Program-made: the position numbers and the translations under genes | Shown: piece by piece, positions 7,030-63,352 of the stretch | Numbering within the stretch: the first letter of the stretch is position 1 | How the letters are laid out: each line of letters begins with the position of its first letter | NCBI GenBank assembly: GCA_016432345.1 | Contig: CP066685.1 | Span: 48,236-112,235 of the forward strand | Direction: 5' to 3' | DNA length: 64,000 bases | Source: Candidatus Levyibacteriota bacterium | GTDB lineage: Bacteria > Patescibacteriota > Microgenomatia > Levybacterales > UBA12049 | Notes under the pieces: generated by a model | Told to the model about the DNA's origin: nothing | Seen by the model: the letters and a program-made list of their open reading frames with translations, nothing else | Database searches by the model: none

Positions 7030-8827
<1,798 letters not shown>

Positions 8828-9590: not shown

Positions 9591-9794
9591 ATTCCTTCTT
9601 TGGAATTGGCTTATATATCAGCTTGAAATATTCCAATAGCTCAACACCCAACTTATTTGCTTCTTCATTGCTTAACTGTTGGTTAAATTTCTCAAGATAT
9701 ATTCGCTTAAAATCACTAATAGCTTTATGACTTAACTGCATAAAACCATTATTCCAAGAATGGAGAAGATAAAAGAGTTACGGGAAAAACTAAA

Positions 9795-16095: not shown

Positions 16096-16097
16096 TG

Positions 16098-16505
16098 TGG
16101 AGATGTCCGAGAGTGACTCGGAGTCCAAGAGCGACAATAAAAAACATCTACAAGCATAGTTGATTTTTAAGAGTCATTTTATTCTTTGTCAATCAACAAA
16201 CATGAATAAAATCAAGGTTTAATAAATAAAATAAGGACAAAAACCAATCTTCCTTACCATTTCTCAACTGTGTTTCTGCCTATACCGTCCCATTGAGAAA
16301 GATGATATAAACAAACCTTAAGCTCTCGCTAACGCGAGTTCTCTTTGGTTAAGCATTCCAAGCTCGGACATAATTGCGTATGCCTCTGCAAAGAGTGCTC
16401 GTCTGCTGGTTTTAATAGCAGTTATTATTTGATCTTTTTTACGACTGTTATCAAAGTCGGCTTGCAGTTTTTTAACGTACATTCTTGTCGATGCAATGCA
16501 TCCCC
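16098..16505 (-). ncRNA. ssrA: tmRNA (ssrA)
   Basis: 5' GGGGATGCATTGCATCGACAAG pairs with 3' CATCTCC-A to give a 7-bp acceptor stem containing G3:U70. A tRNA-like 3' arm reads GGACTCCGAGTCACTCTCGGA. An internal frame ends ...NQRELALARA-TAA at 16318-16320. Starts 37 nt downstream of smpB on the same strand. Confidence 0.8.
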
Positions 16506-19582: not shown

Positions 19583-19650
19583 CAGCGTTTAGCGTATAGA
19601 TAATAGCGTATAGTTTAACTAAACGCTAGACGCTAACAAACTAGACGCTG
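19583..19650. repeat. Palindromic heptad-repeat element, copy D (best preserved)
   Basis: CAGCGTT TAGCGTA TAGATAA TAGCGTA TAGTTTAACTAAACG CTAGACG CTAACAA ACTAGACGCTG. Exactly fills the gap between two co-directional genes. Confidence 0.8.
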
Positions 19651-34271: not shown

Positions 34272-34300
34272 TTGACACTGCAGATGTAGTGTCATATTCT
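34272..34300 (+). promoter_or_regulatory. Putative nrdR-nrdJ promoter
   Basis: TTGACA, 17 nt, TATTCT. Overlaps NrdR box 1. Confidence 0.4.
34274..34293 (+). promoter_or_regulatory. NrdR box 1 (atypical, 2 bp wider)
   Basis: GACACTGCAGATGTAGTGTC has palindromic arms GACACT/AGTGTC. Its centre is 32 bp from the centre of box 2. Confidence 0.5.
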
Positions 34301-34307: not shown

Positions 34308-34323
34308 GCACTATATATAGCGT
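34308..34323 (+). promoter_or_regulatory. NrdR box 2
   Basis: GCACTATATATAGCGT compared with the published consensus acaCwAtATaTwGtgt. Confidence 0.7.
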
Positions 34324-34409
34324 TTAGAAACTAGCGTTCAGCGTCTAGTTATACTATAATAATAACTAAAATAATAACTAAGCGCTAGACTCTAATAACT
34401 AAACGCTAA
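34317..34409. repeat. Heptad-repeat element, copy E (degenerate, in the nrdR leader)
   Basis: ATAGCGTTTAGAAACTAGCGTTCAGCGTCTAG ... AAGCGCTAGACTCTAATAACTAAACGCTAA. Confidence 0.5.
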
Positions 34410-38277: not shown

Positions 38278-38278
38278 A

Positions 38279-38680
38279 ATGGAAGAACAAAACAATAGAA
38301 GATTTGCCAATATTTTTATTGGTATTTTGATCCTTTTAATCATTGGATATTTTGGTTATGGATATATTGCTTCTCAAGATGCTGCAAAAAAAAGCGCAGA
38401 ATTAACAACACAGAATAAACCAACTCCAACTATCGTCCTTGTTGATTATGTGAAGTATCAAGGAAAAACAGGAAAGAATGCTATGCAGCTTTTGCAAGAA
38501 AAATCTTCAGTTGAGACTGCAACATCAGGACTTATTATTGCTATTAATGGAAGAAGAGCAGATAATGCAAAACGTGAGTATTGGGCATTTTATGTGAACG
38601 GCAAACTGGCAACTGTTGGCTCGTCTGATTATCAAACAAAGGATGAAGATATGATTGAGTGGAAAATAGATAAGTATTAA
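38279..38680 (+). CDS. DUF4430-like protein with membrane anchor (possible cobalamin binder)
   Basis: TM anchor, then YWAFYVNGKLATVGSSDYQTKDEDMIEWK, which resembles the DUF4430 domain related to the transcobalamin beta-domain. Start trimmed to the ATG at 38279. Confidence 0.5.
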   Translation: MEEQNNRRFANIFIGILILLIIGYFGYGYIASQDAAKKSAELTTQNKPTPTIVLVDYVKYQGKTGKNAMQLLQEKSSVETATSGLIIAINGRRADNAKREYWAFYVNGKLATVGSSDYQTKDEDMIEWKIDKY

Positions 38681-38685
38681 GTATT

Positions 38686-39219
38686 ATGTATCAAGTATTA
38701 AGGGAGATAACGAATCCATTATTAATTATTGGTATTGCTGTTGCTTTGCGGCTTGTGCCGCATCCTGCAAATTTTGCGCCGATTGGGGCTATGGCGTTGT
38801 TTGGAGGAGCATATCTTAACAAGAAATATGCATTAGCAGTACCACTACTAGCAATGTTGGTATCGGATTTTTTTATTGGTTTTCATAATACCATGGGTTT
38901 TGTGTATGCAAGCTTTTTACTTATTGGCATTCTTGGTTTGTGGTTAAGAAGGCACAAAAATGTTAGAAATGTGATAGGTGCTGCGTTTGTTTCCTCAATA
39001 CTTTTTTTCCTTATTACCAACTTTGGAGTATGGTTGGTTAGTAATATCTATCCAAAAACTGCTGCAGGACTAATAGAATGTTATGTTGTAGCAATCCCGT
39101 TTTTTAGAAATACATTACTTGGAGATTTGTTTTATGTAGGTTTATTTTTTTTTGGTTACGAAGCAGTGTTGAGGTTTATAAAAAGCTATGGTCAAAATCT
39201 ACACAAAAACAGGGGATAA
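38686..39219 (+). CDS. Small multi-pass membrane protein (candidate vitamin/B12 transporter component)
   Basis: About 5-6 TM segments. The HPANFAPIGAMALFGGAYL motif resembles S-component-like membrane proteins. The function is inferred from context only. Confidence 0.4.
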   Translation: MYQVLREITNPLLIIGIAVALRLVPHPANFAPIGAMALFGGAYLNKKYALAVPLLAMLVSDFFIGFHNTMGFVYASFLLIGILGLWLRRHKNVRNVIGAAFVSSILFFLITNFGVWLVSNIYPKTAAGLIECYVVAIPFFRNTLLGDLFYVGLFFFGYEAVLRFIKSYGQNLHKNRG

Positions 39220-39727
39220 AGGGGAGACATCGCTATATGGCGGAAAAAGAGTATCAAAAGCAGATCTAAGAGTTGAAGCCTATGGGACAGTGGATGAACT
39301 CAACAGCGCAATAGGTATTACGATTGCGCAATTTTCAAATAAATCTCAAATAATAAATCTCAAAAAAGAACTTACACAAATTCAAAATGATTTGTTTGAA
39401 ATTGGCTCAATCTTAGCGAGTCCATCAACTATACGCTATACGCTAGACGCTAGACGCTTGGAGAAGATGATTGATGAGATGACAAAAGAACTTCCAGAGC
39501 TTCGAAACTTTATTTTGCCAGGAGGAGGTATTGTAGGTTCGTATTTGCATCTTACTCGTTCGATTGCAAGGCGGGCAGAACGAAGAATTGTTGTATTGTC
39601 TCAAAAAGAGCAGGTTGACAAAAGTATTTTAATGTATTTTAATCGTCTTTCTGATTTGCTGTTTACCATGGCTAGGTTTGTAAATTATAAAGAAAATAAA
39701 AAAGAAGTTATTTGGACAAATAAATAG
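39188..39727 (+). CDS. pduO: PduO-type ATP:cob(I)alamin adenosyltransferase
   Basis: KIYTKTGDKGETSLYGGKRVSK, DELNSAIG, NFILPGG and ARRAERR. Confidence 0.9.
   Translation: MVKIYTKTGDKGETSLYGGKRVSKADLRVEAYGTVDELNSAIGITIAQFSNKSQIINLKKELTQIQNDLFEIGSILASPSTIRYTLDARRLEKMIDEMTKELPELRNFILPGGGIVGSYLHLTRSIARRAERRIVVLSQKEQVDKSILMYFNRLSDLLFTMARFVNYKENKKEVIWTNK
39429..39458 (+). repeat. Heptad array (CTATACG CTATACG CTAGACG CTAGACG) in frame inside pduO
   Basis: This is the right-arm type of the palindromic family. 22 nt (39424-39445) are identical to 52944-52965. Encodes STIRYTLDARR. Confidence 0.9.
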
Positions 39728-39818
39728 ACGGGTGAAACCTTGTGAAATTCAAGGGTAGTGCCGCTACTGTGACAACCAGAGCCCCGATATGAGTCTTCCG
39801 AGCAGAAGCGTTTTTTTT
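39728..39818 (+). ncRNA. Candidate cobalamin riboswitch (short variant)
   Basis: GGUGAAACCUUGUGAAAUUCAAGGGUAGUGCCGCUACUGUGA aligns without gaps to the core consensus AGGGAAnnnnGGUGnAAnUCCnnnnCnGnnCCCGCnACUGUnA. The CCUUG-UGAAAUU-CAAGG hairpin resembles P4/L4, and CGGG...CCCG forms a closing helix. A U8 run precedes the ATG at 39819. Confidence 0.45.
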
Positions 39819-40916
39819 ATGGAAAGAGAAGTAAGATTAGGCTCGCAAGCTTTTGATGTTGAAAAAGAAAGAGTATACGGAAATAAACAAATTCGTGATG
39901 ATTTAGTGTCGTATTTAGACGAATATCGTTTGCAAGTATCAAAACATGGTTTTGAATTTCAATATTCTGGTTATAAGGTTAAGGATATATATAGTGGCGA
40001 GCCAATGAGCGTTAAGACAAAACGAACTTTAGCAGAGCGACGAGCAAAAGGATTGCCAATACACAGAGAATTAGCAGAAGATGCAGGTATTGAAAGTCTT
40101 GATGAGCAGTTGGCATATGCCAAAGAAGGAGACCGTATTTTTTGGATGAGCCCGCCAGGACCAAAAGAAGATGGATATGGTAATTATGGCTTTGTTTTTG
40201 AAGGTAGAGTTGTGGGTGAGCGTCTTTTTATGACTGCAAATCGAATAGAAAAACCAACTATTGCCCAGTGCAACAAAGCATTTTTTGAATTAACAAGAGA
40301 TAATGTTGGCTATATAAATCCAGAGGGATTTTTAGCCAACCCCAGAGTTGTTAGAAATAGTATGGTTGATGCAGATTTTATCTTGCAAAGAAATTTTTCG
40401 TTTGCAGTAGATCAGAAAGAAGCATTAATAAATAAACAAGTTATTGCAGAAATGGATTCGATGATTGATGAATTTGTTGGGGTAGTAAAAACAGGCACGC
40501 GAGAAGAAAAGATTACTGCTTTTCATGCGCTGGAAAATTACGCGCTCGAACTCAAAAAACGTCTTATGCATAAGGCCGAAGCAAGGGAAAACGATAACAT
40601 TATTTTTATGAGCGAATATCGTGATCATAGATATTTAGCAGATATACTGAATGTCTATGGATATATGCCCCCCATTGTTGCGGGAAGCTGTGGACCAACC
40701 GGAGAGGAAACAAAAAGTAACGATCTGTTTGCCGATAATTTTAAAGATTTAATGAAGGCAATTTTTGGAGACTTGAAGGAGATGTTTGGTATTGATGAAG
40801 AATCTTATTCTTTTGATAAGAGCGGTACGTGTGTGCGGTGCAAAAACGAAGGCATGCTTGGTCCGTGTAATTTGTGTCAAGGGTGTGATAGCTACTTACG
40901 ATTGCAAGCCGCGTAA
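39819..40916 (+). CDS. Hypothetical protein with C-terminal Cys cluster
   Basis: 366 aa from the ATG at 39819 (the track start 39789 lies inside the leader structure). Ends CVRCKNEGMLGPCNLCQGCDSYL. No family recognised. Confidence 0.5.
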   Translation: MEREVRLGSQAFDVEKERVYGNKQIRDDLVSYLDEYRLQVSKHGFEFQYSGYKVKDIYSGEPMSVKTKRTLAERRAKGLPIHRELAEDAGIESLDEQLAYAKEGDRIFWMSPPGPKEDGYGNYGFVFEGRVVGERLFMTANRIEKPTIAQCNKAFFELTRDNVGYINPEGFLANPRVVRNSMVDADFILQRNFSFAVDQKEALINKQVIAEMDSMIDEFVGVVKTGTREEKITAFHALENYALELKKRLMHKAEARENDNIIFMSEYRDHRYLADILNVYGYMPPIVAGSCGPTGEETKSNDLFADNFKDLMKAIFGDLKEMFGIDEESYSFDKSGTCVRCKNEGMLGPCNLCQGCDSYLRLQAA

Positions 40917-40962: not shown

Positions 40963-41427
40963 ATGGATGATACTGTCCAGAATTCAGTTCAAAGTTCAAA
41001 GTTCAAAGTTCAAAGCCAGACGCAGGGAGACGATAGTGCGACGACCCAAGTTCAGTCTCAGGTTGTTCCGCAGCCTGTTGGATCAGTTGCAAAAGAACAT
41101 GGGCCGATTGAGGAATACATTAAATCATCGGGAGCAGAATTAGAGCTTATTATACCAGAGGAACTTAAAAATCATGTTGAGGTGGTTTCGGATCGGGAAA
41201 AACCACAGCTTACTCATCATCATAAAGCAGTTGGAATTCATCCCGCCAAAGAATCGGTGTCTGTAGCTGTACAGCCGCAGCAGGTAATTCAGCTCCCAAT
41301 GACAGAAGAAGAGGCTTTGCAAGCAATAAAAACAACAAGCATAAGCGATTCCAAACATTGGATGGCTGTTTTAATTGAAAAGGTTTATGAACATATAAGA
41401 AATATGCATAGAAGAATAACAAATTAG
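40963..41427 (+). CDS. Hypothetical protein
   Basis: 154-aa ORF ending 1 nt before the next gene. The N-terminus contains a heptamer repeat, so the start codon is uncertain. Confidence 0.4.
   Translation: MDDTVQNSVQSSKFKVQSQTQGDDSATTQVQSQVVPQPVGSVAKEHGPIEEYIKSSGAELELIIPEELKNHVEVVSDREKPQLTHHHKAVGIHPAKESVSVAVQPQQVIQLPMTEEEALQAIKTTSISDSKHWMAVLIEKVYEHIRNMHRRITN
40986..41015 (+). repeat. Tandem heptanucleotide repeat (GTTCAAA)x4
   Basis: Period-7 tract of 30 bp. Preceded by CAGAATTCAG, which matches the unit of the gap repeat. Confidence 0.9.
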
Positions 41428-43903: not shown

Positions 43904-45628
43904 ATGAAACCTCGATTTTCCTCGCGGCAAACAATTGGAGCGGCATTTCCAGATTTTATTAGTACTGACAAAGGGTACGGTTCGCATAAACATGTAGAGG
44001 AGGGTTTTTTGGGAGGAAAAAGAGCGATGCGCGGCTTCCTTTTACCTTTTTTGCTTTTTTTCTTGGTTGGTATGCTTGTGGCGCGGCTTTTATCAATTGT
44101 AATATTTCAAGGTAAATACTATAGTAGGCTTGCGGAAAATAACAGAGTAAAAACAACAACTATTTATGCTTCGAGAGGAATAATATATGACCGAAACGGC
44201 GTTCCTTTAGTTTTTAATATGCCAGGTTTTCGGCAAAGGGTTGGAGATAAGACAATTATTTTAACTCATGAGGAAGCAACGAGTAAAATTGCAAATGGTG
44301 AAAAAAATATAGAAATAGACAGTCTTAGACAATATCCATATAAAGATGCGTTTGCTCATGTTTTAGGATATATTGGGCAAATTACCAAAGAGGAGCTTAA
44401 CAAGCCTCAATTCTCCGTTTACAAACCAGGAGATATTGTTGGTAAAACTGGCATTGAACAAATATACGAGCAGGAATTGCGGGGGGTAGATGGAAAGCAA
44501 TTAATAGAGGTAGATGCGCTTGGTAAGCTGGTGCGCACACTTGGACAAAAAGAGTCGGTGTCAGGCCATGATGTCGCTTTAACTATAGATAAAAAATTAC
44601 AGGAAGCTGCATTTAATGCTTTAAAAGATATTAAAAAAGGCGCTGTTATTGCCGCAACACCAAAAGGAGAAATATTAGCTATGGTGTCGAAGCCATCGTT
44701 TGATCCAAACTTATTTACTATGGGTAAAACGTATCAAGCGTCAGATAGTGCCTATTCGGATATTACTGCAATACTTACCGATAATGATAATCAGCCGCTT
44801 TTAAATCGGGCAGTTGCGGGAATCTATCCTCCTGGTTCAACATTTAAGCTTATTACAGCTATTGCTGCTTTGGAAGAGAAAAAGATAGATGAGAAGTTTT
44901 CTATTATGGATACAGGAGTGTTACAGGTTGGGACATTTTCTTTTGGCAGTTGGTACTTTTTGCAGTATGGCAGGACGGAGGGAGAGCTAAATGTGGTAGG
45001 TGCGTTAAAGCGGTCCAACGATATTTTTTTCTATAAAACAGCAGAAAAACTGGGGGTTGATGATCTTGCTAAAAGGGCAAAGATGTTTGGTTTGGGACAA
45101 AAACTGGGAATAGATTTAGAAGGTGAAGCGGCAGGTTTAGTTCCGGACCCAGCATGGAAACAAAAAGCTTTAGGTGAGCAGTGGTATCTTGGGGATACGT
45201 ATCATTATGGAATTGGACAGGGGTATTTACTTGCTACGCCGTTGCAGATAAATACTTTCACGCAAGCGATCGTAAATGAGGGGAAAATATATAAACCTCA
45301 TTTATTCAAGAACAATGAATCAAGAATCATAAATAATGCAAACTTATCTAAAAAAAATGTTGATTTAATAAGAGAAGGAATGATTCAAAGTTGTAGTCCT
45401 GGTGGTGTAGCTTGGCCGCTGTTTGAGTTTAAAATAAGCGTTGCTTGTAAAACTGGCACTGCCCAGCATGGGACAGAAAAGGATTTGCCGCACGCCTGGA
45501 TAACACTTTGGGCGCCGGCAAACGAGCCGCAAGTTATAATTACAGTATTAGCAGAATCATCTGGTGAAGGTTCCAATATTGCAGCGCCAATTGCAAAAAA
45601 GATTTTAGATGAGTGGTTTAGTCGGTAG
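43904..45628 (+). CDS. Class B penicillin-binding protein (PBP2/FtsI-type transpeptidase)
   Basis: TM anchor, STFK (SxxK), SND (SxN) and KTGTA motifs. Confidence 0.85.
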   Translation: MKPRFSSRQTIGAAFPDFISTDKGYGSHKHVEEGFLGGKRAMRGFLLPFLLFFLVGMLVARLLSIVIFQGKYYSRLAENNRVKTTTIYASRGIIYDRNGVPLVFNMPGFRQRVGDKTIILTHEEATSKIANGEKNIEIDSLRQYPYKDAFAHVLGYIGQITKEELNKPQFSVYKPGDIVGKTGIEQIYEQELRGVDGKQLIEVDALGKLVRTLGQKESVSGHDVALTIDKKLQEAAFNALKDIKKGAVIAATPKGEILAMVSKPSFDPNLFTMGKTYQASDSAYSDITAILTDNDNQPLLNRAVAGIYPPGSTFKLITAIAALEEKKIDEKFSIMDTGVLQVGTFSFGSWYFLQYGRTEGELNVVGALKRSNDIFFYKTAEKLGVDDLAKRAKMFGLGQKLGIDLEGEAAGLVPDPAWKQKALGEQWYLGDTYHYGIGQGYLLATPLQINTFTQAIVNEGKIYKPHLFKNNESRIINNANLSKKNVDLIREGMIQSCSPGGVAWPLFEFKISVACKTGTAQHGTEKDLPHAWITLWAPANEPQVIITVLAESSGEGSNIAAPIAKKILDEWFSR

Positions 45629-48645: not shown

Positions 48646-48717
48646 TACCAGGGGTGGGGATCGAACCCACAACCGTAGCGTTATGAATGCTGTGCTCCAC
48701 CATTGAGCTACCCTGGC
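48646..48717 (-). tRNA. tRNA with CAU anticodon (Met or Ile2), imperfect
   Basis: Acceptor GCCAGGG/CCCTGGT (G1:U72), D arm GCTC/GAGC, anticodon loop TTCATAA, T arm GTGGG-TTCGATC-CCCAC. The anticodon stem CAGCA/CGCTA has two mismatches. Its 3' end lies 2 nt from the IS end. Confidence 0.6.
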
Positions 48718-49412
48718 AAATTACTGCTTATTCTATCAAACTTTAGTCCTTCAATCCAACCTTTCATTTTCAATAAGGAGTCTAAACTATCTTTAACATG
48801 AATTCGCAAGACTCCGTGATAATTATCAGTATTATACTGCTTTTTCCATTTTGAATTTTGATAAAATGGTTTTGTAAACTGTTTTAAGGGAATCTCTATT
48901 AGGCGTGACCAATAAACTTGAATTTCTTCTACTTTATTTTTATAAGAAATATTAAGAGTTAGTCTTGCTACAATACGATCTTTACGTATCTTTAAGCATC
49001 TTTTAAGCCATTTTATGTAAAATTGAATCATTGCTGGGTCAGAATTGCAGAATCCCAAACGACTTTCGTGAATGTTTTTAAAGCCTTCTGCCCAATAAAG
49101 AGCTACGCCTGCAATAAACAAATCTCTAAAAGAAAGATCATTGATATAATTTTTACCCTCTTCTAGCAGATTTTTTTCCTTTCGCTTTCGAACTTCTTTT
49201 AGTTCGTTTTGTGCTTTTTTTCTACCATCTTGTAGTGCTTTTTGTGCTCTCTGTTTCAAATTATAGAATTGTGCTTCAGAAAGTTTGATATGAGGAATCC
49301 AGGTACGAATGGTAGTTATTGGAATTCCTGTAGCTTTTTTTATTTGATTTAAGCTCCATCCAGATGATCTAAGGTTCATGACTTTTTCTTTAGTTGCTTG
49401 ATTGTAGCGCAT
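48708..49412 (-). CDS. HTH plus LAGLIDADG-like endonuclease-type protein (free-standing)
   Basis: N-terminal Hin-like HTH (SSGWSLNQIKKATGIPITTIRTW), a basic linker, then DLFIAGVALYWAEGFK as a single LAGLIDADG-like motif. The last 10 nt overlap the tRNA 5' end. Confidence 0.5.
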   Translation of the reverse strand: MRYNQATKEKVMNLRSSGWSLNQIKKATGIPITTIRTWIPHIKLSEAQFYNLKQRAQKALQDGRKKAQNELKEVRKRKEKNLLEEGKNYINDLSFRDLFIAGVALYWAEGFKNIHESRLGFCNSDPAMIQFYIKWLKRCLKIRKDRIVARLTLNISYKNKVEEIQVYWSRLIEIPLKQFTKPFYQNSKWKKQYNTDNYHGVLRIHVKDSLDSLLKMKGWIEGLKFDRISSNLPG

Positions 49413-49520: not shown

Positions 49521-49800
49521 TACGCGCGGGGTAGTGTAGAGTGCACGTGAGGCTCAAAATGGGCCCTTTTATTAGTAATAATGAGAGAGAACTTAGCTAT
49601 ATCGGTAAAATCCCCCTTCGCATAAAGTTTTGGAGGGACAATACCGAGGGAATCCGCAAACTGGCGGAACACCGTAGAGACTACACGCTAAGCTCCCGAT
49701 ACTATCGGGATGATGATATAGTCCGACACTCCAAGCAATTGGAGAAACAGATCGCATAATCTCACAGGCTGGGCGCAACTCCCAGCCCCGCAACACATTT
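49521..49800 (+). ncRNA. Unclassified structured RNA (stand-alone sRNA or long 5' leader of the MFS gene)
   Basis: Hairpins: CGGTA...TACCG (49603-49646) enclosing TCCCCC/GGAGGGA; TCCGC-AAACTG-GCGGA (49653-49668); CCCGAT-ACT-ATCGGG (49695-49709); CTCCAA-GCAA-TTGGAG with a GNRA loop (49729-49744); GGCTGGG-CGCAACT-CCCAGCC (49767-49787) followed by a T5 run. A possible closing helix is GCGGGG/CCCCGC. The ORFs on both strands look like noise. Confidence 0.4.
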
Positions 49801-49832: not shown

Positions 49833-51014
49833 GTGAACAGGATTATTCGGGAGCTTTTTTTGCTGCATGTTTTAAACGATGGTGTTCGTACCACCTTTGT
49901 TGTTTTACTGCCATTTATTGCCAAAGATTTACTGCTTCCTTACACCTACGTTGGGTTTTTAGGATCATTTCAATCACTGGCAGGTACTATTTTGGCTTTG
50001 CCGGCTGGTTTTATTGCCGCTAGAATTGGCGGGCTTCATTTGTTAGCCAGCTTGTTAATTATCTATAGTTTGGGTGCTTTGGGAGTAGGTTTTTCACCAA
50101 ACATAGTTTTATTAACCATATTTTTTGCTTTAGGCGCCATTGGGTTTGGCATGTTTCATACAGTCAGTTATTCAGTGGTTGCCAAAAGTGCTGAAAAATC
50201 ATCTGTTGGCAAGCTTATGGGAGATTTTACCTCGGTTGGAGATATTGGCAGACTGGGTTTGCCCCCGCTGGCTCTTTTTATTGCTTCTTTAATTGGCTGG
50301 CGAATGACAATGTTTTTTTTAGCTGCAGTTGGTTTTGCAACATATGTTTTTATCCGCTTTTTATCTCCTTCAAAAGATATATATAAATTCCGAAGGTCAA
50401 GCAATGTCGAGCATCATCGAGACTTTTTCAAAATCACATTGCTGCTTTTGCGCATTGAAAAACTGCTGTTAATTCTTTTTGCTGCTATTATAGATTCGTT
50501 GGCTGGCGGGGCAATGGCTGTGTTTTTGCCTTTCTTACTTTTATCAAAAGGTATTACTTCTCAACAATTAGCATTTGTAATGGGAATATATTTTTTGGGC
50601 AGTCTGTTAGGTAAATCTCTTCTTGGTCGGGTAGTAGACAAGTTTGGCAATGCCAAAGTTTTTGTATTATCCGAGCTTTGTATGTCAATTATACTTTTTT
50701 TGCTTATTGATACATCAGTTATTTATTTTATTTTCTTTTTAGCCATTTTTTTAGGCGCTTTTACCAGAGGAACAAATCCAGTTGTTTTAACAATGCTGGC
50801 TGGTATTACTGATCAAATTCACTATAACAAAGTTTATGCAGTAAGCGAAATTTCTATTACTGCTGCCTCAACCATTACAGGTGTTGTCATGGGTATTGTT
50901 GCCGATAAAGCAGGCATCACAACGGTTTTCTATGTCCTAGCAACGTTAGCATTTTTGGCGATTTTTCCTATTCTGCCAGTTCTTTTTGGCAAAATTCGCC
51001 TAAATCACCTATAA
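49833..51014 (+). CDS. MFS transporter
   Basis: 393 aa with about 12 hydrophobic segments. GTG start. Confidence 0.8.
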   Translation: MNRIIRELFLLHVLNDGVRTTFVVLLPFIAKDLLLPYTYVGFLGSFQSLAGTILALPAGFIAARIGGLHLLASLLIIYSLGALGVGFSPNIVLLTIFFALGAIGFGMFHTVSYSVVAKSAEKSSVGKLMGDFTSVGDIGRLGLPPLALFIASLIGWRMTMFFLAAVGFATYVFIRFLSPSKDIYKFRRSSNVEHHRDFFKITLLLLRIEKLLLILFAAIIDSLAGGAMAVFLPFLLLSKGITSQQLAFVMGIYFLGSLLGKSLLGRVVDKFGNAKVFVLSELCMSIILFLLIDTSVIYFIFFLAIFLGAFTRGTNPVVLTMLAGITDQIHYNKVYAVSEISITAASTITGVVMGIVADKAGITTVFYVLATLAFLAIFPILPVLFGKIRLNHL

Positions 51015-51023: not shown

Positions 51024-51821
51024 ATGAACAATCAGCCGATTGGTGTTTTAGACTCTGGAGTTGGAGGATTGTCCATTTGGCAAGAAATTGTTAAACAGAT
51101 GCCTCGCGAATCCACAATCTATATTGCCGATTCCAAAAACTGTCCGTACGGCAGTCGAGCACCACACGAGATTTTCCCGCTCGCCAAGCGAATAGTGCAA
51201 TTTCTCCTTGAAAAAAAAGTAAAAGTAATTGTTGTTGCCTGCAATACTATTTCTGTTTGTGCATTAAAAGAGTTGCGCGGTGAATATAAAACTGTGCCAA
51301 TTGTTGGTATTGTGCCGGTTATAAAAACTGCGGCAATCAAGACAAAAAACAAATACATCGGTATTTTTTCTACAGTAACAACAGCTAAAAGCGGATACGA
51401 AAAGGAACTTATTAAAACATTCACAAGCGGTTGTAAAGTTACAAATATTGGCACAGAAAAGCTTGTTCCATTTATCGAGAGAGGAGATATTGATTCGGAG
51501 GAGGTTAAAAAGGTTATCAAAATTGTGACTAAGCCGTTTGTAAAAAATAACATTGATGTGATTGCGCTTGGGTGTTCGCACTTTCCGTTTTTAGCAAAGC
51601 CAATGCAAGAGATTTTAGGGAAAAACGTATTGATCTTGGATTCGGCAAGAGCGGTGGGGCGACATGTGGGACGAGTACTAACAAAGAATAATATGTTGAC
51701 ATCACGAAATAAAGCACAGCACCAGTTTTTTACCACGGGAAATGCAAATAAGTTTGAGAAGGTCGCAGAGAAATTAATTGGCGATACAATACGAGGAAAT
51801 GTTATATATGTACGACTTTAA
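51024..51821 (+). CDS. murI: Glutamate racemase
   Basis: IGVLDSGVGGLSI, VVACNT and LGCSHFPFL. Confidence 0.9.
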   Translation: MNNQPIGVLDSGVGGLSIWQEIVKQMPRESTIYIADSKNCPYGSRAPHEIFPLAKRIVQFLLEKKVKVIVVACNTISVCALKELRGEYKTVPIVGIVPVIKTAAIKTKNKYIGIFSTVTTAKSGYEKELIKTFTSGCKVTNIGTEKLVPFIERGDIDSEEVKKVIKIVTKPFVKNNIDVIALGCSHFPFLAKPMQEILGKNVLILDSARAVGRHVGRVLTKNNMLTSRNKAQHQFFTTGNANKFEKVAEKLIGDTIRGNVIYVRL

Positions 51822-53157
51822 AGATAAAAAAATTGCGGTTTTGGGAATGGGAATAGAGGGAGAATCAAGCGCAGAATTCCTTCGTAAGCGCGGTGCCAAT
51901 GTTGCAGAATTAGATCAGAAAATAGATAAAGATTATCTTGAGTATCTGGAAAAGTTTGACATGATTGTTAGAAGTCCGGGAATTAAAAGAAATCTTCCTC
52001 AACTTATTGAAGCAGAAAAAAAAGGAGTAATTATTACCTCCCAAACCAAACTTTTTTTTGATATGTGTCCCTGTCCAATTATTGGTGTGACCGGTACTAA
52101 AGGAAAGGGGACAACATCTGCGCTTATTTATGAAATGTTAAAAGAATCTGGTAAGGATGTGTATTTAGGTGGCAATATTGGTAATCCTCCATTTACATTT
52201 TTGGATAAACTTACTATTCAGTCAAAAGTGGTTTTAGAAATGTCTAGTTTTCAACTGCAAGACATGACTGTAAGTCCGCACATTGGTGTTGTTTTAATGA
52301 TTACTCAAGAACATTTAGCTCCTGATAAAAAAGACAGTCCAGACCAGAATTTTCATACCGATATTTATGAATATATTGATGCCAAAAGAAACATTATTCG
52401 TTTTCAGAGCAATAAAGATTTTGCAGTAATCAATAGAGACTATATTGCCAGTAACGAGTCGGATATCACAACCGCGGGAAAAGTATTTCATGTCAGCCGC
52501 GAGCAGGGAGTTAGTCAGGGAGCATATGTAAAAAATAATGTAGTATTCTTGCGGTTTAACGATAAAGAGCAAAAAATTATTGATGCAAAAGACGTCTTGC
52601 TTCGGGGTGGACATAATTTGGAAAACGTGTGTGCAGTGGTGATGGCGGCAACGCTTTCCGGCGTAACGGCTAAAAATATAGTTTCAGTCTTAACCAGTTT
52701 TCGAGGACTGGAACATAGGCTGCAGTTTATTGGCCAAGTGAGTGGAGTTGAGTATTATGACGATTCGTTTTCGACTACTCCCGAAACTGCTATTGCGGCA
52801 ATCCAGGCCTTTACCGAGCCGGAGGTTTTAATTCTGGGAGGCGCACATAAGGGGAGCGATTTTACCGAGTTAGGCAGGGTTATTAGTGAAGCAAAAAATA
52901 TCAAAGCCATTATCGGCATCGGCATTGAGTGGAGCAGGATAAAATCAACTATACGCTATACGCTAAACGCTATGCGTTATATTGAAGGATGTGGGGATAT
53001 GCAGGAGATTGTACGAAAGGCAGCCGAGGTGGCAAAGCCGGGGGATGTGGTGGTATTGAGTCCTGCCTGTAGTAGTTTTGATATGTTTAAAAATTACAAA
53101 GACCGGGGCGAGCAGTTTAAGAGGGAAGTTGGAAAATTAGAACTCTATACTCCATAA
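51808..53157 (+). CDS. murD: UDP-N-acetylmuramoylalanine--D-glutamate ligase
   Basis: IAVLGMGIEG, GVTGTKGKGTTS, GGNIGNP and LSPACSSFDMFKNYKDRG. ATG at 51808 is preferred. Confidence 0.9.
   Translation: MYDFKDKKIAVLGMGIEGESSAEFLRKRGANVAELDQKIDKDYLEYLEKFDMIVRSPGIKRNLPQLIEAEKKGVIITSQTKLFFDMCPCPIIGVTGTKGKGTTSALIYEMLKESGKDVYLGGNIGNPPFTFLDKLTIQSKVVLEMSSFQLQDMTVSPHIGVVLMITQEHLAPDKKDSPDQNFHTDIYEYIDAKRNIIRFQSNKDFAVINRDYIASNESDITTAGKVFHVSREQGVSQGAYVKNNVVFLRFNDKEQKIIDAKDVLLRGGHNLENVCAVVMAATLSGVTAKNIVSVLTSFRGLEHRLQFIGQVSGVEYYDDSFSTTPETAIAAIQAFTEPEVLILGGAHKGSDFTELGRVISEAKNIKAIIGIGIEWSRIKSTIRYTLNAMRYIEGCGDMQEIVRKAAEVAKPGDVVVLSPACSSFDMFKNYKDRGEQFKREVGKLELYTP
52949..52976 (+). repeat. Heptad array (CTATACG CTATACG CTAAACG CTATGCG) in frame inside murD
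   Basis: Same element type and same reading frame as the copy in pduO. Encodes STIRYTLNAMRY. Confidence 0.9.
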
Positions 53158-54583: not shown

Positions 54584-56109
54584 TTTTAATTGTTGATTTT
54601 GGTTCACAAACAACCCATCTTATTGGCAGGCGAATAAAAGAGTTAGGCGCTGCGGTGCAAATTGTTACTCCCGAATCCGTTTTATCAACAATTCAAAAAG
54701 AGAAACCATCGGGTATTATTTTGTCCGGGGGTCCCTCATCAGTTTACGAAAGCGGCAGTCCAACCATAGATAAGAAAATTTTTGATCTTAAAATTCCCGT
54801 TTTGGCAATTTGCTACGGGTTTCAGTTAACAGCACATTTGTTAGGTGGTAAAGTCTTATTTGGCAGAAAAGAATATGGACCAGCCAGGCTGGAAATCTTA
54901 AATCTTAAATCTCAAATCTCAAATAGCTTACCAAAAAAGTTTACGGTCTGGATGAGTCATGGGGATGATATTGTTTTTCTGCCAAGTGGATTTATTGTTT
55001 TTGGTAGTACCGAACATGTGTCGTTTGCTTTAGCAACAGATGAAGAGAGAAAAATTTTTGGCTTGTTGTTTCACCCGGAGGTCGAGCATACAGAGTATGG
55101 CAGGCATATTTTAGCTAATTTTATCCGCATTTGTGGGAGTTCCGTCAAAGAACACAAAATTGATGTAGAACAGATTATTGCCGAAATAAAAGAAAAAGTA
55201 GGGGATAATTATGTGATTGGTGCGGTTTCGGGCGGTGTTGATTCCACAGTTGCTGGAGTATTAGCAGCCAGCGCAATAGGTGACAAATTTATTCCAGTCT
55301 ATGTTGACAATGGATTGATGCGGCAGGGGACAACAGAACATGTGAAAAAAATTTTCACAAAAACAGCTGGAATAAATCCTATAGTTATTGACGCGGTGGG
55401 GGAGACTTTGGAGAATTTACGGGGGATAGCCGACCCGGAAGAAAAAAGAAAAGTAATTGGTAATTTATATATTACAATTTTTGAGCATCAAGCGGAAAAA
55501 TTGGCAAAATCTGGTAAATCTACCAAATTTCTTATGCAAGGTACTATTTATTCGGATGTCATAGAGTCTCAAGGCAGCAAGCACGCGGCTAAGATAAAAA
55601 GCCATCATAATGTTGGCGGTTTACCCGAGCGCATGAAGTTACAACTTTTGGAACCGCTCCGAGGGTTATATAAAGACGAAGTCAGGACTCTTGGAAAAAG
55701 TTTGGGACTCCCCGATGAATTTGTGCATAAACAACCATTTCCCGGCCCAGGTTTTGCCGTACGAATTAGAGGAGAAGTTACCAAAGAGCGACTAGAGAAA
55801 GAGAAGAAGGCAGATGTAATAGTGCTTGAAGAATTAGAAAAAGCGGGGTTGCTTGCTAGTATTTTTATTTCATTTCCCGTGATGACCAATGCTTTTTCTA
55901 CAGCAGTCAAGGGAGACGGGCAGTTTTTTGGCGAAGTTATTGCTCTTCGAGTGGTTGAGTCTCAAGATGTAATGACTGCCACATGGGCCCGACTCCCCTA
56001 CGAAGTCTTGCAAAAAATTTCCTCTCGTATTGTTAATGAAGTTTCGGGAATTTCCCGCGTTGTCTACGACATTTCCACCAAACCCCCAGCCACCATGGAG
56101 TGGGAATAG
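54580..56109 (+). CDS. guaA: GMP synthase (glutamine-hydrolysing)
   Basis: GATase motifs CYGFQ and HPE, the ATP-PPase motif VSGGVDS, and the C-terminal dimerisation domain ending PPATMEWE. Confidence 0.9.
   Translation: MILIVDFGSQTTHLIGRRIKELGAAVQIVTPESVLSTIQKEKPSGIILSGGPSSVYESGSPTIDKKIFDLKIPVLAICYGFQLTAHLLGGKVLFGRKEYGPARLEILNLKSQISNSLPKKFTVWMSHGDDIVFLPSGFIVFGSTEHVSFALATDEERKIFGLLFHPEVEHTEYGRHILANFIRICGSSVKEHKIDVEQIIAEIKEKVGDNYVIGAVSGGVDSTVAGVLAASAIGDKFIPVYVDNGLMRQGTTEHVKKIFTKTAGINPIVIDAVGETLENLRGIADPEEKRKVIGNLYITIFEHQAEKLAKSGKSTKFLMQGTIYSDVIESQGSKHAAKIKSHHNVGGLPERMKLQLLEPLRGLYKDEVRTLGKSLGLPDEFVHKQPFPGPGFAVRIRGEVTKERLEKEKKADVIVLEELEKAGLLASIFISFPVMTNAFSTAVKGDGQFFGEVIALRVVESQDVMTATWARLPYEVLQKISSRIVNEVSGISRVVYDISTKPPATMEWE
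54893..54924 (+). repeat. Tandem heptanucleotide repeat (AAATCTT x2, AAATCTC x2) inside guaA
   Basis: Period-7 tract of 32 bp. Encodes LNLKSQISNS just before the conserved VWMSHGD. Confidence 0.9.
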
Positions 56110-59711: not shown

Positions 59712-60506
59712 TTAAGCTTTCTGTACATAGTTTATCATGTTTTCAAAGATGGTGAGACCAGCTGGTTTTGTTATCTGCTCGCTTGCGGACATTCGGCGCC
59801 AGTTGGGGTGGTTGGTAATGTGGTTAAATTTTTCCGGATGGGGCATTAGACCTAAAATTCTGCCAGTTGGGTCACAAATGCCGGCAATGGCATTAATAGA
59901 TCCATTTGGATTTTCTGGATAATTTTGGGTTGGTTTACTGTTCGCATCGACATAGCGAAAGACAACCAAATTTTCATCCTCGATTTTTTGTATCATATCG
60001 GGTGTTGCTAAGAATTTACCTTCTCCATGATTGACAGAAACATCTGTTATTAATTCCGCATTTTTCAGAAAGACACAAGCACTTTTTTCCTGTTTTATCT
60101 TTACCCACCTGCATTGAAATAGACCAGATTCATTATTGGTTAAGGTCGCATTTATAGTGCCTATGTTTCCAAATGGTAAAAGACCTGTGAGGATAAGTAC
60201 CTGGAAGCCGTTACATATACCTATAACAAGTGTATCTTTACGTTCAACAAATTTTTTAAGTTCATCAGAAAAAAATGATATCAGCTCAACTGCTAAAATT
60301 TTCCCAGATACAATATCATCTCCGTATGCAAAACCGCCAGGGAGGGCGAGAATATTGAAGTCACGAAACTTTTTTTCTTTGTTTCGTAACTGATTAACAT
60401 GGACAATTTCGGCATTGCCGCCGCTTACATTAAATGCAAAGGCTAATTCTTCATCGCAGTTTGTCCCATCTGCTTTTAGCACTAAAACCTTTGGTTTTAT
60501 TTTCAT
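59712..60506 (-). CDS. purQ: FGAM synthase glutaminase subunit PurQ
   Basis: ALPGGFAYGDD, GICNGFQ and the HGEG triad context. Confidence 0.85.
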   Translation of the reverse strand: MKIKPKVLVLKADGTNCDEELAFAFNVSGGNAEIVHVNQLRNKEKKFRDFNILALPGGFAYGDDIVSGKILAVELISFFSDELKKFVERKDTLVIGICNGFQVLILTGLLPFGNIGTINATLTNNESGLFQCRWVKIKQEKSACVFLKNAELITDVSVNHGEGKFLATPDMIQKIEDENLVVFRYVDANSKPTQNYPENPNGSINAIAGICDPTGRILGLMPHPEKFNHITNHPNWRRMSASEQITKPAGLTIFENMINYVQKA

Positions 60507-63352
60507 CCAAAAATCTCCTTCATCGGTTTTTGCCAGACCTGTTTTAGTTTATCTACATTTGCAGCAAAAAGTGTTGTTTTATCTTGTTTGGTTGATATGA
60601 TTTTTTCTTTTTTTGTTCTCCCTAGAATTATATATGGAACATTTTTAAACAGTGCGCTAGCGATTTTTTCATTTTCCACTTCAACAACAAAACAACCAGC
60701 AGTTTCGTTAAAGAGAAAATTATCTATTTTTGTTTGACCATTTATAATTATTTCTGCGCCCATGTTCCCCCCAACGCACATTTCAAAAAGGCTAGTGATT
60801 GTTCCGCCTTCGCTAATATCGTGGCAAGAAAGGAGAGCATTTTTTTGTATAGCATGGTGAATTGCATCAAGCGTTTTGGGTAGTTGTTGTAAATTAACGT
60901 GTGGGATGCGTCCATCTCCATCAAAATATGTCGAGCCAGCCATTGCCAAAAAATCCATTGCGCCCACAAGATAAATAAGGCTACCATTTTTCTTGAAATC
61001 CGTACTCACCGTTTTTGTCACATCTTTAATTTTGCCAAATGCAGAGATGCATAAAACCGGTGGTATTTTAATAACAGTTCCATCACTCCCTTTGTAAGTT
61101 GAAGAAAGGCTGTCTTTTCCAGAAATAACAGGAATTTGTAAAGTCTTCATAAAATCGCAAACTGCATCAACAGATTTGTCAATTGACCACAATGATTCAC
61201 TATCTGGAAATGGCCAAATATAATTGTTGATAAGAGACGCATCCTTGTAATTTCCGCCAACTGCTACATAGTTAGAAATAGCTTCTGCCGCAGCCCAGAT
61301 GCTTCCCCAATAAGGGTCGATATTATTAAGAATTGGGTTTAATCCATGCGAAACAATTACTCCATATGGTTTTTCAAGGATTGGTCTAACAATAGAAGCA
61401 TCATTTGGGCCATCGAGCAATTCTCCGCTATATGGTTGCATGGCGTTGGTGCCCTGCACCGTGTGGTCATAGCGTCTGACAATTGGTTCTTTTGAGCAAA
61501 TGTTTCCATGAGAGAGGACTTTTTTAAGAATCTCTATCCATCCTCTTTCTGTTTTTGGAGCATTTTGTGTTTTGCCTGCCCGCCGAATTGGAGGAAGTTT
61601 CAAGTTTTTAGTTTTAAGTTCGCGTTTTGCATACAAAACACGTTGTGGCAGACCGTGGTGGAGAAATTCCATATCCAGGCTACAAACAGTTTCTTTGCCA
61701 AAGTAAACTTGAAGTTTTTTACTGCCGTTAAATTTTCCCAAAACCGATGATTCAACATTGTACTTTTTGCAAATCTCTAAAAATTTTTGCAGTTTATTTT
61801 TGGGAATAGCTAAAATCATTCTTTCTTGAGATTCTGCTAGCCAAATTTCCCAAGGAGACAAGCCTTTATATTTAAGCCGTTCATTTTCTAAGTGTACAGA
61901 AACACCTGTATGTTCTCCCATTTCTCCAATTGCCGAGGAAAGTCCTCCGCCGCCGCTATCTTGGATTGCTCGAATGCAATTTTTGTCTCTCGCTTCCAAA
62001 ATTGCATCAAACATCCGTTTTTCTTCGATAGCATTGCCAATTTGGACTGCTTGGGCATTAACATTTATTGTCCGTTCTGTCATTTCTGCGCTTGAAAATG
62101 TAGCGCCGTGAATGCCGTCTCGGCCAACACGGCCGCCAATACTTAAAATTACATCGCCAACTTTTGGTTGTCCTTTTTTGGCGTATTTCTTGGGCATTAT
62201 GCCGTACGCGCCAACTAACACAGTTGGTTTGGCGCGAAAGTCATCGTGGAAATGAAACGAGCCGTTGTTAGTGGGAATTCCCATGCGGTTACCGTAATCT
62301 TTGATCGCAGCAACAACTCGTTTTAAAATATAAGCAGGCGGCAGAGAACCTTTGGGTAATTTTCCTTTATCCATATCCCACGGCGCAAGACAGAAAATAT
62401 CTGTTGAAACAATTGTTTTAGCGCCCTTGCCTGTACCAACAATGTCGCGAAAAACCCCGCCGCTTCCGGTCATTGCCCCGCCATATGGTTCAATGGCAGA
62501 TGGACTGTTATGTGTTTCGCCTTTGCCGCAAATGGCATATCCATCATAAAAATCCATCACTCCAGAATTATCAACAAAAGCAGAGACAATGTGTTTATTG
62601 TGTTTTAAGGCTTCATTTTGTAAGCGTTTTATAAGTGGTTCTTTTTCCGTTCCGTCAACAATAAGTTTGGCTTTAAATGTTTTGTGTCCCGAGTGTTCGC
62701 TCCATGTTTGGGCAAGGGTTTCAAGTTCCAAATCTGTTGGGTCTCGTTTTATGTTTTGAAAATACTTTTGAATTATTTTCATTTCTTCTAAATTTAAAAA
62801 AAGCTTATCGTGGGAAAGATTTAACATTTCCTGGTCGGTCATATCTTGAAGAGGAATAATGGTTGTTTTACCCACAACGCCTTTAATTAAAAGTGTGTCT
62901 GGTTTTTTTCCGACAATGTGTTCAATAAGTGGATTAAAAAGTTTTAGTTTTTCCGCAATTTCAATTGCTTTTTGTCTATTGGTATTACCGTAAAATCCAT
63001 ACTCCCAAGACGAATCAGCGGCTTTAAGTTTTATTCCTAAATTATCTGCGGCCTTTGTGATTGATGCAATTTCGGGGTTCATGACACCTGGCTTATAAGC
63101 TATTTCAATAATTTGGCTGGCATTTTTTAATATTGATTTATTAAGAGTATATGTTTGGTTGATTGGTTCACTAAATAATTTTTCTGCAAGAACTGTCGCT
63201 TCTTTTTCGCTTATGCCTTCAAGTCTATAGACGCGTGCTGTTTTGACCGAAGCAACTTGTTTATTTTTTAGAATATTTAAGATGTCGTGTAGAATTGTTT
63301 CCCCTGGTAGGTCTTTACCAATAATTGTTTGTACTCGAACTGTTTGTATCAT
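60503..63352 (-). CDS. purL: FGAM synthase subunit PurL with N-terminal PurS-like extension
   Basis: 949 aa. HNSPSAIEPYGGA, duplicated AIR-synthase-like domains, and an N-terminal PurS-like segment of about 80 aa. Confidence 0.9.
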   Translation of the reverse strand: MIQTVRVQTIIGKDLPGETILHDILNILKNKQVASVKTARVYRLEGISEKEATVLAEKLFSEPINQTYTLNKSILKNASQIIEIAYKPGVMNPEIASITKAADNLGIKLKAADSSWEYGFYGNTNRQKAIEIAEKLKLFNPLIEHIVGKKPDTLLIKGVVGKTTIIPLQDMTDQEMLNLSHDKLFLNLEEMKIIQKYFQNIKRDPTDLELETLAQTWSEHSGHKTFKAKLIVDGTEKEPLIKRLQNEALKHNKHIVSAFVDNSGVMDFYDGYAICGKGETHNSPSAIEPYGGAMTGSGGVFRDIVGTGKGAKTIVSTDIFCLAPWDMDKGKLPKGSLPPAYILKRVVAAIKDYGNRMGIPTNNGSFHFHDDFRAKPTVLVGAYGIMPKKYAKKGQPKVGDVILSIGGRVGRDGIHGATFSSAEMTERTINVNAQAVQIGNAIEEKRMFDAILEARDKNCIRAIQDSGGGGLSSAIGEMGEHTGVSVHLENERLKYKGLSPWEIWLAESQERMILAIPKNKLQKFLEICKKYNVESSVLGKFNGSKKLQVYFGKETVCSLDMEFLHHGLPQRVLYAKRELKTKNLKLPPIRRAGKTQNAPKTERGWIEILKKVLSHGNICSKEPIVRRYDHTVQGTNAMQPYSGELLDGPNDASIVRPILEKPYGVIVSHGLNPILNNIDPYWGSIWAAAEAISNYVAVGGNYKDASLINNYIWPFPDSESLWSIDKSVDAVCDFMKTLQIPVISGKDSLSSTYKGSDGTVIKIPPVLCISAFGKIKDVTKTVSTDFKKNGSLIYLVGAMDFLAMAGSTYFDGDGRIPHVNLQQLPKTLDAIHHAIQKNALLSCHDISEGGTITSLFEMCVGGNMGAEIIINGQTKIDNFLFNETAGCFVVEVENEKIASALFKNVPYIILGRTKKEKIISTKQDKTTLFAANVDKLKQVWQKPMKEIFG

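Follow-up and report, generated by a model that had tools for sequence, protein, structure and literature searches.

Tandem arrays of heptanucleotides have for decades been known from cyanobacteria, Beggiatoaceae, Geobacter and Xanthomonas, with no accepted origin or function (PMC4692102, PMC4679880, PMC2700814). Heptanucleotide repeats are summarised there as the most over-represented of the longer simple-sequence repeats in bacteria, with polymerase slippage as the proposed cause (Mrazek 2007, cited in PMC4692102, PMC4679880), and the short tandemly repeated repetitive (STRR) sequences of cyanobacteria are described in the same summaries as tandem heptanucleotides (Mazel 1990; Mrazek 2007, summarised in PMC4692102, PMC4679880). 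Here we describe a five-unit heptad array of a CGCTA-NN type, or TAGCG-NN on the opposite strand, inside the cell-wall ligase gene murD of a Candidatus Levyibacteriota bacterium (assembly GCA_016432345.1, contig CP066685.1, positions 48,236 to 112,235 of the forward strand; these 64,000 nucleotides are called the window). Comparison with orthologous genes makes it probable that this block is an old, inherited and translated heptanucleotide array of five CGCTA-NN units, whose length has been held at 12 codons while its unit has changed, and which is most likely a tolerated passenger for MurD.

Among the described systems, the TAACTGA repeats of marine Beggiatoaceae, cyanobacteria and Bacteroidetes consist of two to six units that mostly lie a few nucleotides upstream of start codons, often without a Shine-Dalgarno sequence, or that overlap an upstream stop codon (MacGregor 2015, PMC4679880). 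They contain stops in all three frames in one direction, the copies within open reading frames (ORFs) occur only in reverse and are translated as a 7-amino-acid repeat, and their distribution across phyla is patchy, with no known transfer mechanism (PMC4679880). In Geobacter metallireducens, a multicopy element made of four GGACCGG heptads in tandem is present 49 times, both inside genes and between them, and there are also five-heptad paired sites of the form MTYCTGA (PMC2700814). The GGGAATC repeats of Xanthomonas and the GGGGA(C/T)T repeats of Nostoc form heptamer arrays, most often of four units and in some cases as convergent inverted pairs, which are mostly intergenic (PMC4692102). A full-text literature search for the CGCTA-NN/TAGCG-NN unit with 11-12-mers returned unrelated primer matches only, and nothing relevant came of a search that combined the candidate phyla radiation (CPR) or Patescibacteria with heptanucleotide repeats. 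Within the literature searched, CGCTA-NN is a new unit family within the known heptanucleotide repeat class.

The murD gene, which encodes UDP-N-acetylmuramoylalanine--D-glutamate ligase, extends over 51808-53157 (+), with the ATG at 51808 giving a 449-amino-acid protein identical to P0001; the mechanical ORF begins upstream of this, at a TTG at 51778. The original prediction had quoted an in-frame heptad block from this gene, and the quoted sequence is indeed present at 52945-52977 (+) in the reading frame of the murD ORF, as TCA ACT ATA CGC TAT ACG CTA AAC GCT ATG CGT. The block falls within the predicted range of 52944-52980, the bounds of which are off by 1-3 nt; the whole block, a TCAA lead-in followed by a degenerate five-unit array, runs from 52945 to 52980 (+) as TCAA CTATACG CTATACG CTAAACG CTATGCG TTAT. 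Tandem Repeats Finder (TRF) reports period 7, 4.7 copies and 80% matches at 52949-52981, and the block has the 7-nt unit, repeated head to tail in at least three to four copies, that defines a heptanucleotide array. Its translation is STIRYTLNAMRY, corresponding to MurD residues 380-391, with LILGGAHKGSDF before and VLSPACSSFDMF after it, and these protein flanks, together with the motifs GGAHKGSDF and LSPACSSFD, agree with the earlier placement in the C-terminal domain between the GGxxKG region and LSPACSSFD. In an AlphaFold model of MurD (mean predicted local distance difference test score, pLDDT, 86), residues 380-391 form the end of a helix (375-381), a loop (382-389) and the start of a strand (390-392), with a local pLDDT of about 75, somewhat under the model mean. 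The block is accordingly modelled as a connector between two secondary-structure elements of MurD domain 3, and this region is only about two residues longer than in Streptococcus MurD (alignment to the solved structure 3lk7).

We measured the segment between the EWxRIK and IEG motifs in 117 of the 120 best MurD homologues. Because it has exactly 12 residues in 77 of these 117 (9-14 residues in 103), the array adds no length to murD. The same nucleotide block, in the same codons, is found in orthologues with 85% (L001), 69% (L004) and 60% (L002) protein identity, which shows that the block is ancient at its site rather than the product of a recent event. An insertion into murD, as implied by the original prediction, is therefore not borne out, and the shorter linker in MurD orthologues, for which a check had been proposed, is not seen, as most of them have exactly 12 residues there. 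Four other MurD orthologues keep the peptide; three of them (P0003, P0007 and P0109) were read as DNA and all three keep the nucleotide repeat, the fourth (P0034) being seen as protein only, and orthologues without the repeat have unrelated peptides at the segment. The observation that had been named as refuting the idea, a segment conserved as protein in orthologues that lack the nucleotide repeat, was thus not made in the three that were read as DNA.

The conservation of the block extends to synonymous sites. Of the positions whose amino acid is conserved in all four carriers (the window, L001, L004 and L002) and can be written with three or more synonymous codons, 5 of 6 in the block have one and the same codon throughout, as opposed to 23 of 139 elsewhere in the gene (Fisher p=0.001). 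At third codon positions the four agree in 8 of 12 cases within the block and in 103 of 424 elsewhere (p=0.003). In the comparison with L002, whose gene has 67% nucleotide identity, the block ranks 18th of 425 windows of 12 codons, and across the MurD family the segment that holds it is the most variable part of the protein. Because the codons CGC, ACG and CTA, which are unexpected at the composition of 38% GC, are retained, this conservation is unexplained by selection on the peptide; since it resides at the nucleotide level, it points to selection or biased conversion acting on a DNA or RNA motif.

Eight MurD orthologues, picked for repeat-like peptides, were read at the DNA level (the window, L001, L004, L002, L122, L126, L127 and L128), and all eight have about five heptads placed exactly between the K codon of EWxRIK and the I/L-E-G motif. 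The unit itself differs between them. It is of the CGCTATA type in the window, L001, L004 and L002, ATATACA or ATATACC in L122, CAATTTT (4.7 copies, with 27 of 28 period-7 self-matches) in L126, CA[T/G]AATT in L127 and A[A/G]AATCA in L128. The L122 protein (P0002) is 86% identical to that of the window, and relative to the window its array has CGC replaced by CAA or CCA in every unit, which is the pattern that concerted change of the units in an array leaves. The description as a cassette of fixed length appears to hold for a substantial subset of the MurD homologues, not demonstrably for all of them.

Several other orthologues (P0013, P0004/P0005, P0016, P0020 and P0053) carry large, unrelated, low-complexity inserts at exactly the site of the murD block, and because of these inserts we regard the position as permissive. 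In P0013, a segment of about 38 amino acids (SSGVKRSREVDSGQSSPRWSYGEAGQNDGSRLARTI) occurs at two places in the one protein. The large inserts look like other translated repeat elements, and those of P0004 and P0016 have an RSWTSQDD motif in common. Two smaller features of the family are recorded here for completeness. A 7-amino-acid, GC-rich insert, Q-S/P-ASRQGG-S (TCTGCCTCGCGGCAAGGCGGG in L001, MurD P0003, gene at 9008-10345), stands at the same position in L001, P0068 and P0015, which are non-sister orthologues, and is absent from the window; and a 10-residue APDKKDSPDQ stretch in the central domain (alignment columns ~214-223) is patchy even between close pairs, being present in P0001 and absent in P0003.

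The block had been called the companion of a copy in a pduO-type adenosyltransferase gene of the window, and the two are unmistakably related. The pduO array, at 39424-39460 (+), reads ATCAA CTATACG CTATACG CTAGACG CTAGACG CT and is translated as STIRYTLDARRL; TRF reports period 7, 4.3 copies and 95% matches at 39429-39458. An exact 22-mer, ATCAACTATACGCTATACGCTA, is common to murD (52944-52965) and pduO (39424-39445), with two matches in the window, none expected and none in 100 shuffles, and beyond it both blocks run on as CTA-N-ACG heptads. A block of the STIRYTL type occupies the same site in 8 of 120 PduO homologues, and in the four homologues read at the DNA level the nucleotides are near-identical (TCA ACT ATA CGC TAT ACG CTA ...), with four perfect CTATACG units in L124. 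Other PduO homologues have, at this site, peptides that fit other heptad units (NTKYQIQNTKY, KNQESRIKN, NSKSQTSNLKY). There are two length classes of PduO loop, of 9 and of 13 residues, and the array-bearing sequences belong to the longer class, about four residues above those that are array-free. A gain of length is thus seen in pduO and not in murD. A second heptad-derived array in pduO (39338-39364, +; period 14, AATAAATCTCAAAT in 1.9 copies, peptide FSNKSQIINLKK) lies at a site whose length varies by exactly 7 residues between orthologues. In addition, among 32 aligned PduO sequences only the window and the genome GCA_043823085.1 (L002/L123) have a 7-residue (21-nt) deletion right after the block, at 39460-39470. 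For a 7-nt unit, 21 nt is the sole slippage step that stays in frame, and the 7-residue steps seen here are differences between orthologues. An AdoCbl-II (cobalamin) riboswitch at 39716-39792 (+) overlaps the 3' end of pduO and lies directly upstream of ORF 39789-40916; the relative L123 has a structured region ahead of pduO.

Within the window, the 14-mer TATACGCTATACGC has 11 matches with up to two mismatches compared to 0.23 expected, and CTA-N-ACG/CGT-N-TAG arrays occupy seven loci. Period 7 is the only enriched tandem period, with five arrays of at least 28 nt as opposed to none or one at each of the other periods from 4 to 15 and about zero in simulations. Five intergenic elements are full and inverted, with a TAGCG-NN arm, an AT-rich centre and a CGCTA-NN arm. 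The element at 2500-2562 abuts the 5' end of a tRNA-Ser gene and gives the TAG stop of ORF 2541-2969 (-); that at 3606-3666 lies between a tRNA-Arg gene (-) and ORF 3667-6009 (+); that at 6103-6167 lies between tRNA-Ser (6009-6095, -) and tRNA-Arg (6173-6247, -), 5-8 nt from both mature ends; and that at 19584-19648, between two minus-strand genes, folds into a hairpin whichever strand is taken (z -4.0 and -3.0). The fifth, more degenerate element (34318-34406) lies between a promoter-like site at 34272-34300 and the nrdR start at 34413, and ends 7 nt ahead of the nrdR ATG, within the predicted 5' untranslated region of nrdR. Three of the full elements are 5-8 nt from mature tRNA ends, and a fourth is about 20 nt from one. 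Both strands of these elements fold into hairpins better than shuffled sequences do, with z from -2.4 to -4.0. When the blocks of murD and pduO are aligned with the five elements, they match the right arm in register, including the T[C/T]AAC lead-in, and the term 'half-element' in the original prediction is in this respect apt.

Scans for sigma-70 promoters and intrinsic terminators found none within the elements, and one promoter-like site just upstream of the element at 34318-34406. Rfam 15 has no family at any of the window elements at gathering thresholds, nor in three element-bearing loci elsewhere at E<=1. The half-element in murD has no predicted hairpin (z +0.2 sense, -1.8 antisense), and with a value of +0.45 for the pduO block we dropped a hairpin role for the in-gene copies. 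We also considered a relic left arm upstream of the murD block (GAGTGGAGCAGGATA) and rejected it: the likeness is short and was seen by eye, and the E-W pair is invariant in 34 of 34 aligned orthologues.

The ORFs of the window contain at least nine more heptad arrays, each 24-33 nt long. Three on the plus strand have 100% matches, namely AATTTTC in 4.4 copies at 22639-22669 (KIFNFQFSIFN), AATTCAG in 4.6 copies at 32120-32151 (NSEFRIQNSEL) and AGTTCAA in 4.3 copies at 40986-41015 (SVQSSKFKVQS). The guaA gene contains AAATCT[T/C] in 4.6 copies at 54893-54924 (+; LEILNLKSQISN), a penicillin-binding protein gene contains a degenerate TCAAGAA array at 45306-45329 (+; FKNNESRIIN), and ORF 60503-63352 contains a degenerate array at 61595-61620 (-; RELKTKNLKL). 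Finally, TAAGTAT in 4.6 copies at 38671-38702 (+) spans the stop of ORF 38162-38680 and the ATG of ORF 38686-39219, an arrangement as described for the TAACTGA repeats.

A scan of other genomes with AACTANACGCTANACGCTA, one genome per species, matched at least 117 stretches, compared to about 70 chance matches estimated for the whole collection under equal base frequencies; nearly all of the matches listed have further heptads or an inverted partner. By their record labels, as given, the matches listed come from Levyibacteriota, other CPR, Omnitrophota, Planctomycetota, Atribacterota, Elusimicrobiota, Nitrospirae, Clostridia, Melainabacteria, Saprospiraceae and 'uncultured Gammaproteobacteria', and in these metagenome-assembled genomes (MAGs) the CGCTA-NN unit is found both between genes and within housekeeping genes. 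The window, together with the loci from the scan and those of the orthologues, contains 148 arrays with at least three units, of which 39 lie inside sense open frames and 6 appear to be antisense. Hosts of in-ORF arrays confirmed by Pfam are a DnaX-like clamp-loader subunit, TsaD, a KdsB-type cytidylyltransferase, a class I tRNA synthetase, MnmA and DXS. At many scan loci the array lies 4-20 nt ahead of an ATG or a Shine-Dalgarno site.

The density of the family differs between close relatives. No TAGCG pairs were found at the loci of several relatives examined. L123 has a perfect direct array of seven TAGCGTA units at 9745-9794, three bases past the ribonucleotide reductase stop and upstream of pduO, with few such arrays otherwise in its genome, and in L126 9 of 12 TRF rows within 13.5 kb have period 7. 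The nrdR element is absent at the same place in two relatives (L123 6640-6810, L125 5810-5976), which keep the TTGACA promoter-like site and palindromic boxes and have unrelated sequence instead; a conserved operator upstream of nrdR was on this ground ruled out. MAGs labelled 'uncultured Gammaproteobacteria' (L070, and also L032, L046, L054, L059, L066, L069, L074 and L102) have the exact CPR element architecture, and the putative LepA context of L070 (by eye, from an IDTPGH motif) is closely like that of L110, a Patescibacteria MAG. The 'uncultured Gammaproteobacteria' labels may be wrong.

The coding frame of these arrays is tightly limited by stop codons. TAG closes every antisense frame of the murD block, and the TAA of CTAAACG shuts one of the sense frames, leaving two of six frames open. 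Through the pduO block, as read from its sequence, one of six is open, which is the observed one, as two CTAGACG units close the others. Because so few frames are open through either block, the shared frame is weak evidence, and it is largely forced. Since the other strand reads TAG every 7 nt, the CTA orientation alone is translatable. The same frame in two enzymes had been taken as support for a general mechanism rather than a one-off event; the phenomenon is indeed general, as the further in-ORF arrays of the window and the 39 sense arrays among the 148 attest, and the argument from frame carries little of that weight. Elsewhere the CGCTA-NN unit is read in cyclically permuted registers (KLNAKRYTLNA, NYTLDAKRYTL). 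In L105, L020, L065, L031 and L098 (labelled Planctomycetota, Patescibacteria or 'uncultured bacterium'), complete inverted elements are translated in prepilin-type leader peptides (...IADSGQRIADRKRKLYAKRYTLNANPGFTLTEL), with CAG instead of TAG at the unit where TAG would be an in-frame stop.

With the STRR and heptanucleotide class, as far as it is summarised in the reports cited above, the family has in common a 7-nt unit, short head-to-tail arrays, many dispersed copies and an excess of period 7; unlike that class it has the CGCTA-NN unit, a CPR host and copies of fixed length inside essential enzymes. Similarities to the TAACTGA repeats are that the antisense of the murD block is stopped in all frames with ORF arrays mainly in the other orientation, and that intergenic arrays lie a few nucleotides upstream of start codons (7 nt at nrdR, 4-20 nt at many loci). 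The two differ in unit, and the intergenic form described here is usually an inverted, hairpin-capable pair. Moreover, the ORF copies here occupy internal connectors of conserved enzymes and are kept between orthologues, whereas most of those in BOGUAY belong to hypothetical proteins or to the ends of proteins (PMC4679880). Geobacter metallireducens, a deltaproteobacterium, has GC-rich units, and neither orthologue comparison nor unit switching was reported (PMC2700814). The Xanthomonas and Nostoc repeats are G-rich and are proposed to form G-quadruplexes (PMC4692102), which the CGCTA-NN unit cannot form. Repetitive extragenic palindromic (REP) elements, which go with a RAYT transposase gene, are single imperfect palindromes of 20-40 nt with a GTAG or CGTC head, in contrast to the tandem heptads of the arms described here. 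In the omega system of plasmid pSM19035, ribbon-helix-helix operator arrays consist of contiguous 7-bp units in direct and inverted orientation, to which a cognate ribbon-helix-helix dimer binds; the heptad arrangement is similar, and no cognate protein was identified here. A likeness to Chi-like (AGCGG) and HutP-like (UAG-N4-UAG) motifs may also be drawn, and was set aside. An analogy with DNA uptake sequences, suggested by the length-neutral in-gene copies and inverted intergenic pairs, was set aside, as a density of about seven arrays per 64 kb is far too low compared to about one strongly conserved 9-12-mer per kb and unit switching would be unexplained. A phase-variable contingency locus, in which a perfect repeat with a unit not divisible by 3 switches a dispensable and usually surface gene on and off, was likewise rejected, murD being generally essential, the array degenerate (80% matches) and its length fixed among orthologues.

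The reading that we favour, of an old translated array that MurD tolerates, would work as follows. The site would have held a heptad array of about 35 nt since before the sampled Levyibacteriota/Microgenomates lineages split, its 12-codon length being kept by selection on the fold while the sequence of the unit changed over time. Misalignment by 7 nt, out of register, in replication or repair would both create the arrays and make them uniform. Within an essential ORF the survivors would be frame-keeping outcomes only, either conversion of the unit at constant length or changes by 21 nt (7 amino acids) at a time, and only the CTA orientation, free of the TAG that recurs every 7 nt on the other strand, would be translatable. 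In the lineage of the window, the murD unit is that of the dispersed TAGCG-NN palindromic elements of the genome, and selection or biased conversion tied to whatever recognises those elements may keep the CGCTA-NN unit, with MurD merely tolerating the segment.

Several points weigh against this account. Slippage and passenger status leave the synonymous-site retention of CGCTA-NN and its recurrence in several phyla unaccounted for, and slippage polymorphism was not directly observed. The synonymous test is a comparison of 6 codons across 4 sequences. Most of the 120 MurD homologues were classed as 'other', with peptides that could not be assigned to a unit, and the set read as DNA was chosen for its repeat-like look. 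On a rough neighbour-joining tree of MurD, carriers of the CGCTATA type stand in distant branches, with P0109 apart from P0001, P0003 and P0007; either the block is very old and its unit has been switched many times, or more than one writing event took place at the same boundaries. Finally, the same few units recur across genes and genomes though some 220 AT-rich stop-free heptads are possible, which hints at copying between loci or at strong constraints. Convergence from a small repertoire was also considered: 218 stop-free AT-rich heptads exist, so simple convergence is no obvious account of recurring units.

The leading alternative is that the array is a functional nucleic-acid site, in which a sequence-specific factor, either an RNA or a protein acting on DNA or RNA, recognises 7-nt-spaced TAGCG-NN/CGCTA-NN arrays throughout the genome and the murD and pduO copies are kept as internal binding or punctuation sites. 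It would account for the conserved synonymous sites among carriers, for a unit kept in MAGs labelled as several phyla, for the hairpins of the full elements and for their location at fixed types of place (beside tRNA ends, just upstream of starts or Shine-Dalgarno sites and in the predicted nrdR leader), and orthologous arrays are more alike across genomes than the murD and pduO arrays are within the second genome. However, many close orthologues have swapped the unit for unrelated heptads or large inserts with no sign that the site is needed, the half-elements lack predicted structure, neither an Rfam match nor a candidate binding protein was identified, and the nrdR element is absent from two relatives. 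We therefore regard this explanation as possible and clearly the less likely of the two. A different proposal is a recent, in-frame insertion of half a mobile palindromic element into murD, and a separate one into pduO, that made the linker longer. The precedents would be MITEs (miniature inverted-repeat transposable elements) and the Rickettsia palindromic elements, which Ogata et al. (2000) reportedly found dispersed and translated in conserved protein genes at permissive surface positions. Rickettsia palindromic elements are about 100-150 bp long, lengthen the host protein and are not tandem heptads; compared to these and to MITEs, the murD block has 35 nt and adds no length relative to orthologues. 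The block does correspond to one arm of a dispersed palindromic element, TCAAC lead-in included, the presence of full elements varies between relatives, the arrays of several other proteins are additions to the Pfam profile, array-bearing PduO loops are the longer ones, and unrelated inserts occupy the murD site in other orthologues, in one case twice in the same protein. Set against this, MurD shows no gain in length, the codon position is identical in orthologues down to 60% identity, other lineages hold different heptad units in exactly the same 12 codons, and no target-site duplications or terminal repeats are evident in the sequence flanking the murD and pduO blocks, murD having one arm only. 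The orthologue comparison largely refutes this reading for murD, and overall we consider it improbable.

Less probable still is that the peptide S-T-I-R-Y-T-L-N-A is itself selected, as an interaction or structural motif shared by MurD and PduO, with the repeat as a by-product. The same peptide does occur in the two enzymes and in several orthologues of each, and in the model the segment is predicted to include the start of a beta-strand. However, the codons are conserved too, the unexpected CGC, ACG and CTA among them, orthologues substitute unrelated peptides of equal length, and the unit is untranslated between genes and, where unrelated proteins and prepilin leaders that are cleaved off contain it, is read in cyclically permuted frames; we give this idea very little credence. 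As for chance likeness or ordinary low-complexity sequence, the short length of the block is the one thing in its favour, and the shared 22-mer, the 11 matches to the 14-mer and the lack of period-7 arrays in simulated sequence leave it with next to no probability.

A more far-reaching pair of linked readings is that the TAGCG-NN arrays are recognition sites of an undescribed sequence-specific system in CPR, Omnitrophota, Planctomycetota, Atribacterota and others, and that a dedicated, templated mechanism rewrites heptad cassettes of about 33-35 nt at the same connectors of essential enzymes. If true, the recognition system would mean that in-gene copies such as the murD block are kept as working sites, and templated rewriting would account for the recurrence of few units at orthologous sites of distant lineages with identical boundaries. 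We regard this combination as possible but unlikely.

What this case adds is, first, a new CGCTA-NN unit family in MAGs labelled as several uncultured phyla. At the MurD and PduO sites, fixed-length arrays persist while the unit changes, which offers a natural time series for array evolution, and the conservation of synonymous sites points to selection or drive on the nucleic acid. In practical terms, such segments should be masked in the alignment and phylogeny of CPR proteins, because they are repeat-derived and not homologous residue by residue.

The window contains three further features of note. A group I catalytic intron is matched by Rfam at 49545-49745 (+), with 66.5 bits compared to a gathering score of 50; there is no listed ORF there, the match sits between ORF 48708-49412 (-) and ORF 49833-51014 (+), and no tRNA or rRNA gene that would be its host was found in the surroundings. 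Two tRNA-Ser(tga) genes, at 7031-7120 and 12622-12709, have identical Rfam scores and are 5.6 kb apart, and this pair is likely a duplication. Finally, a tmRNA gene is located at 16095-16505 (-).

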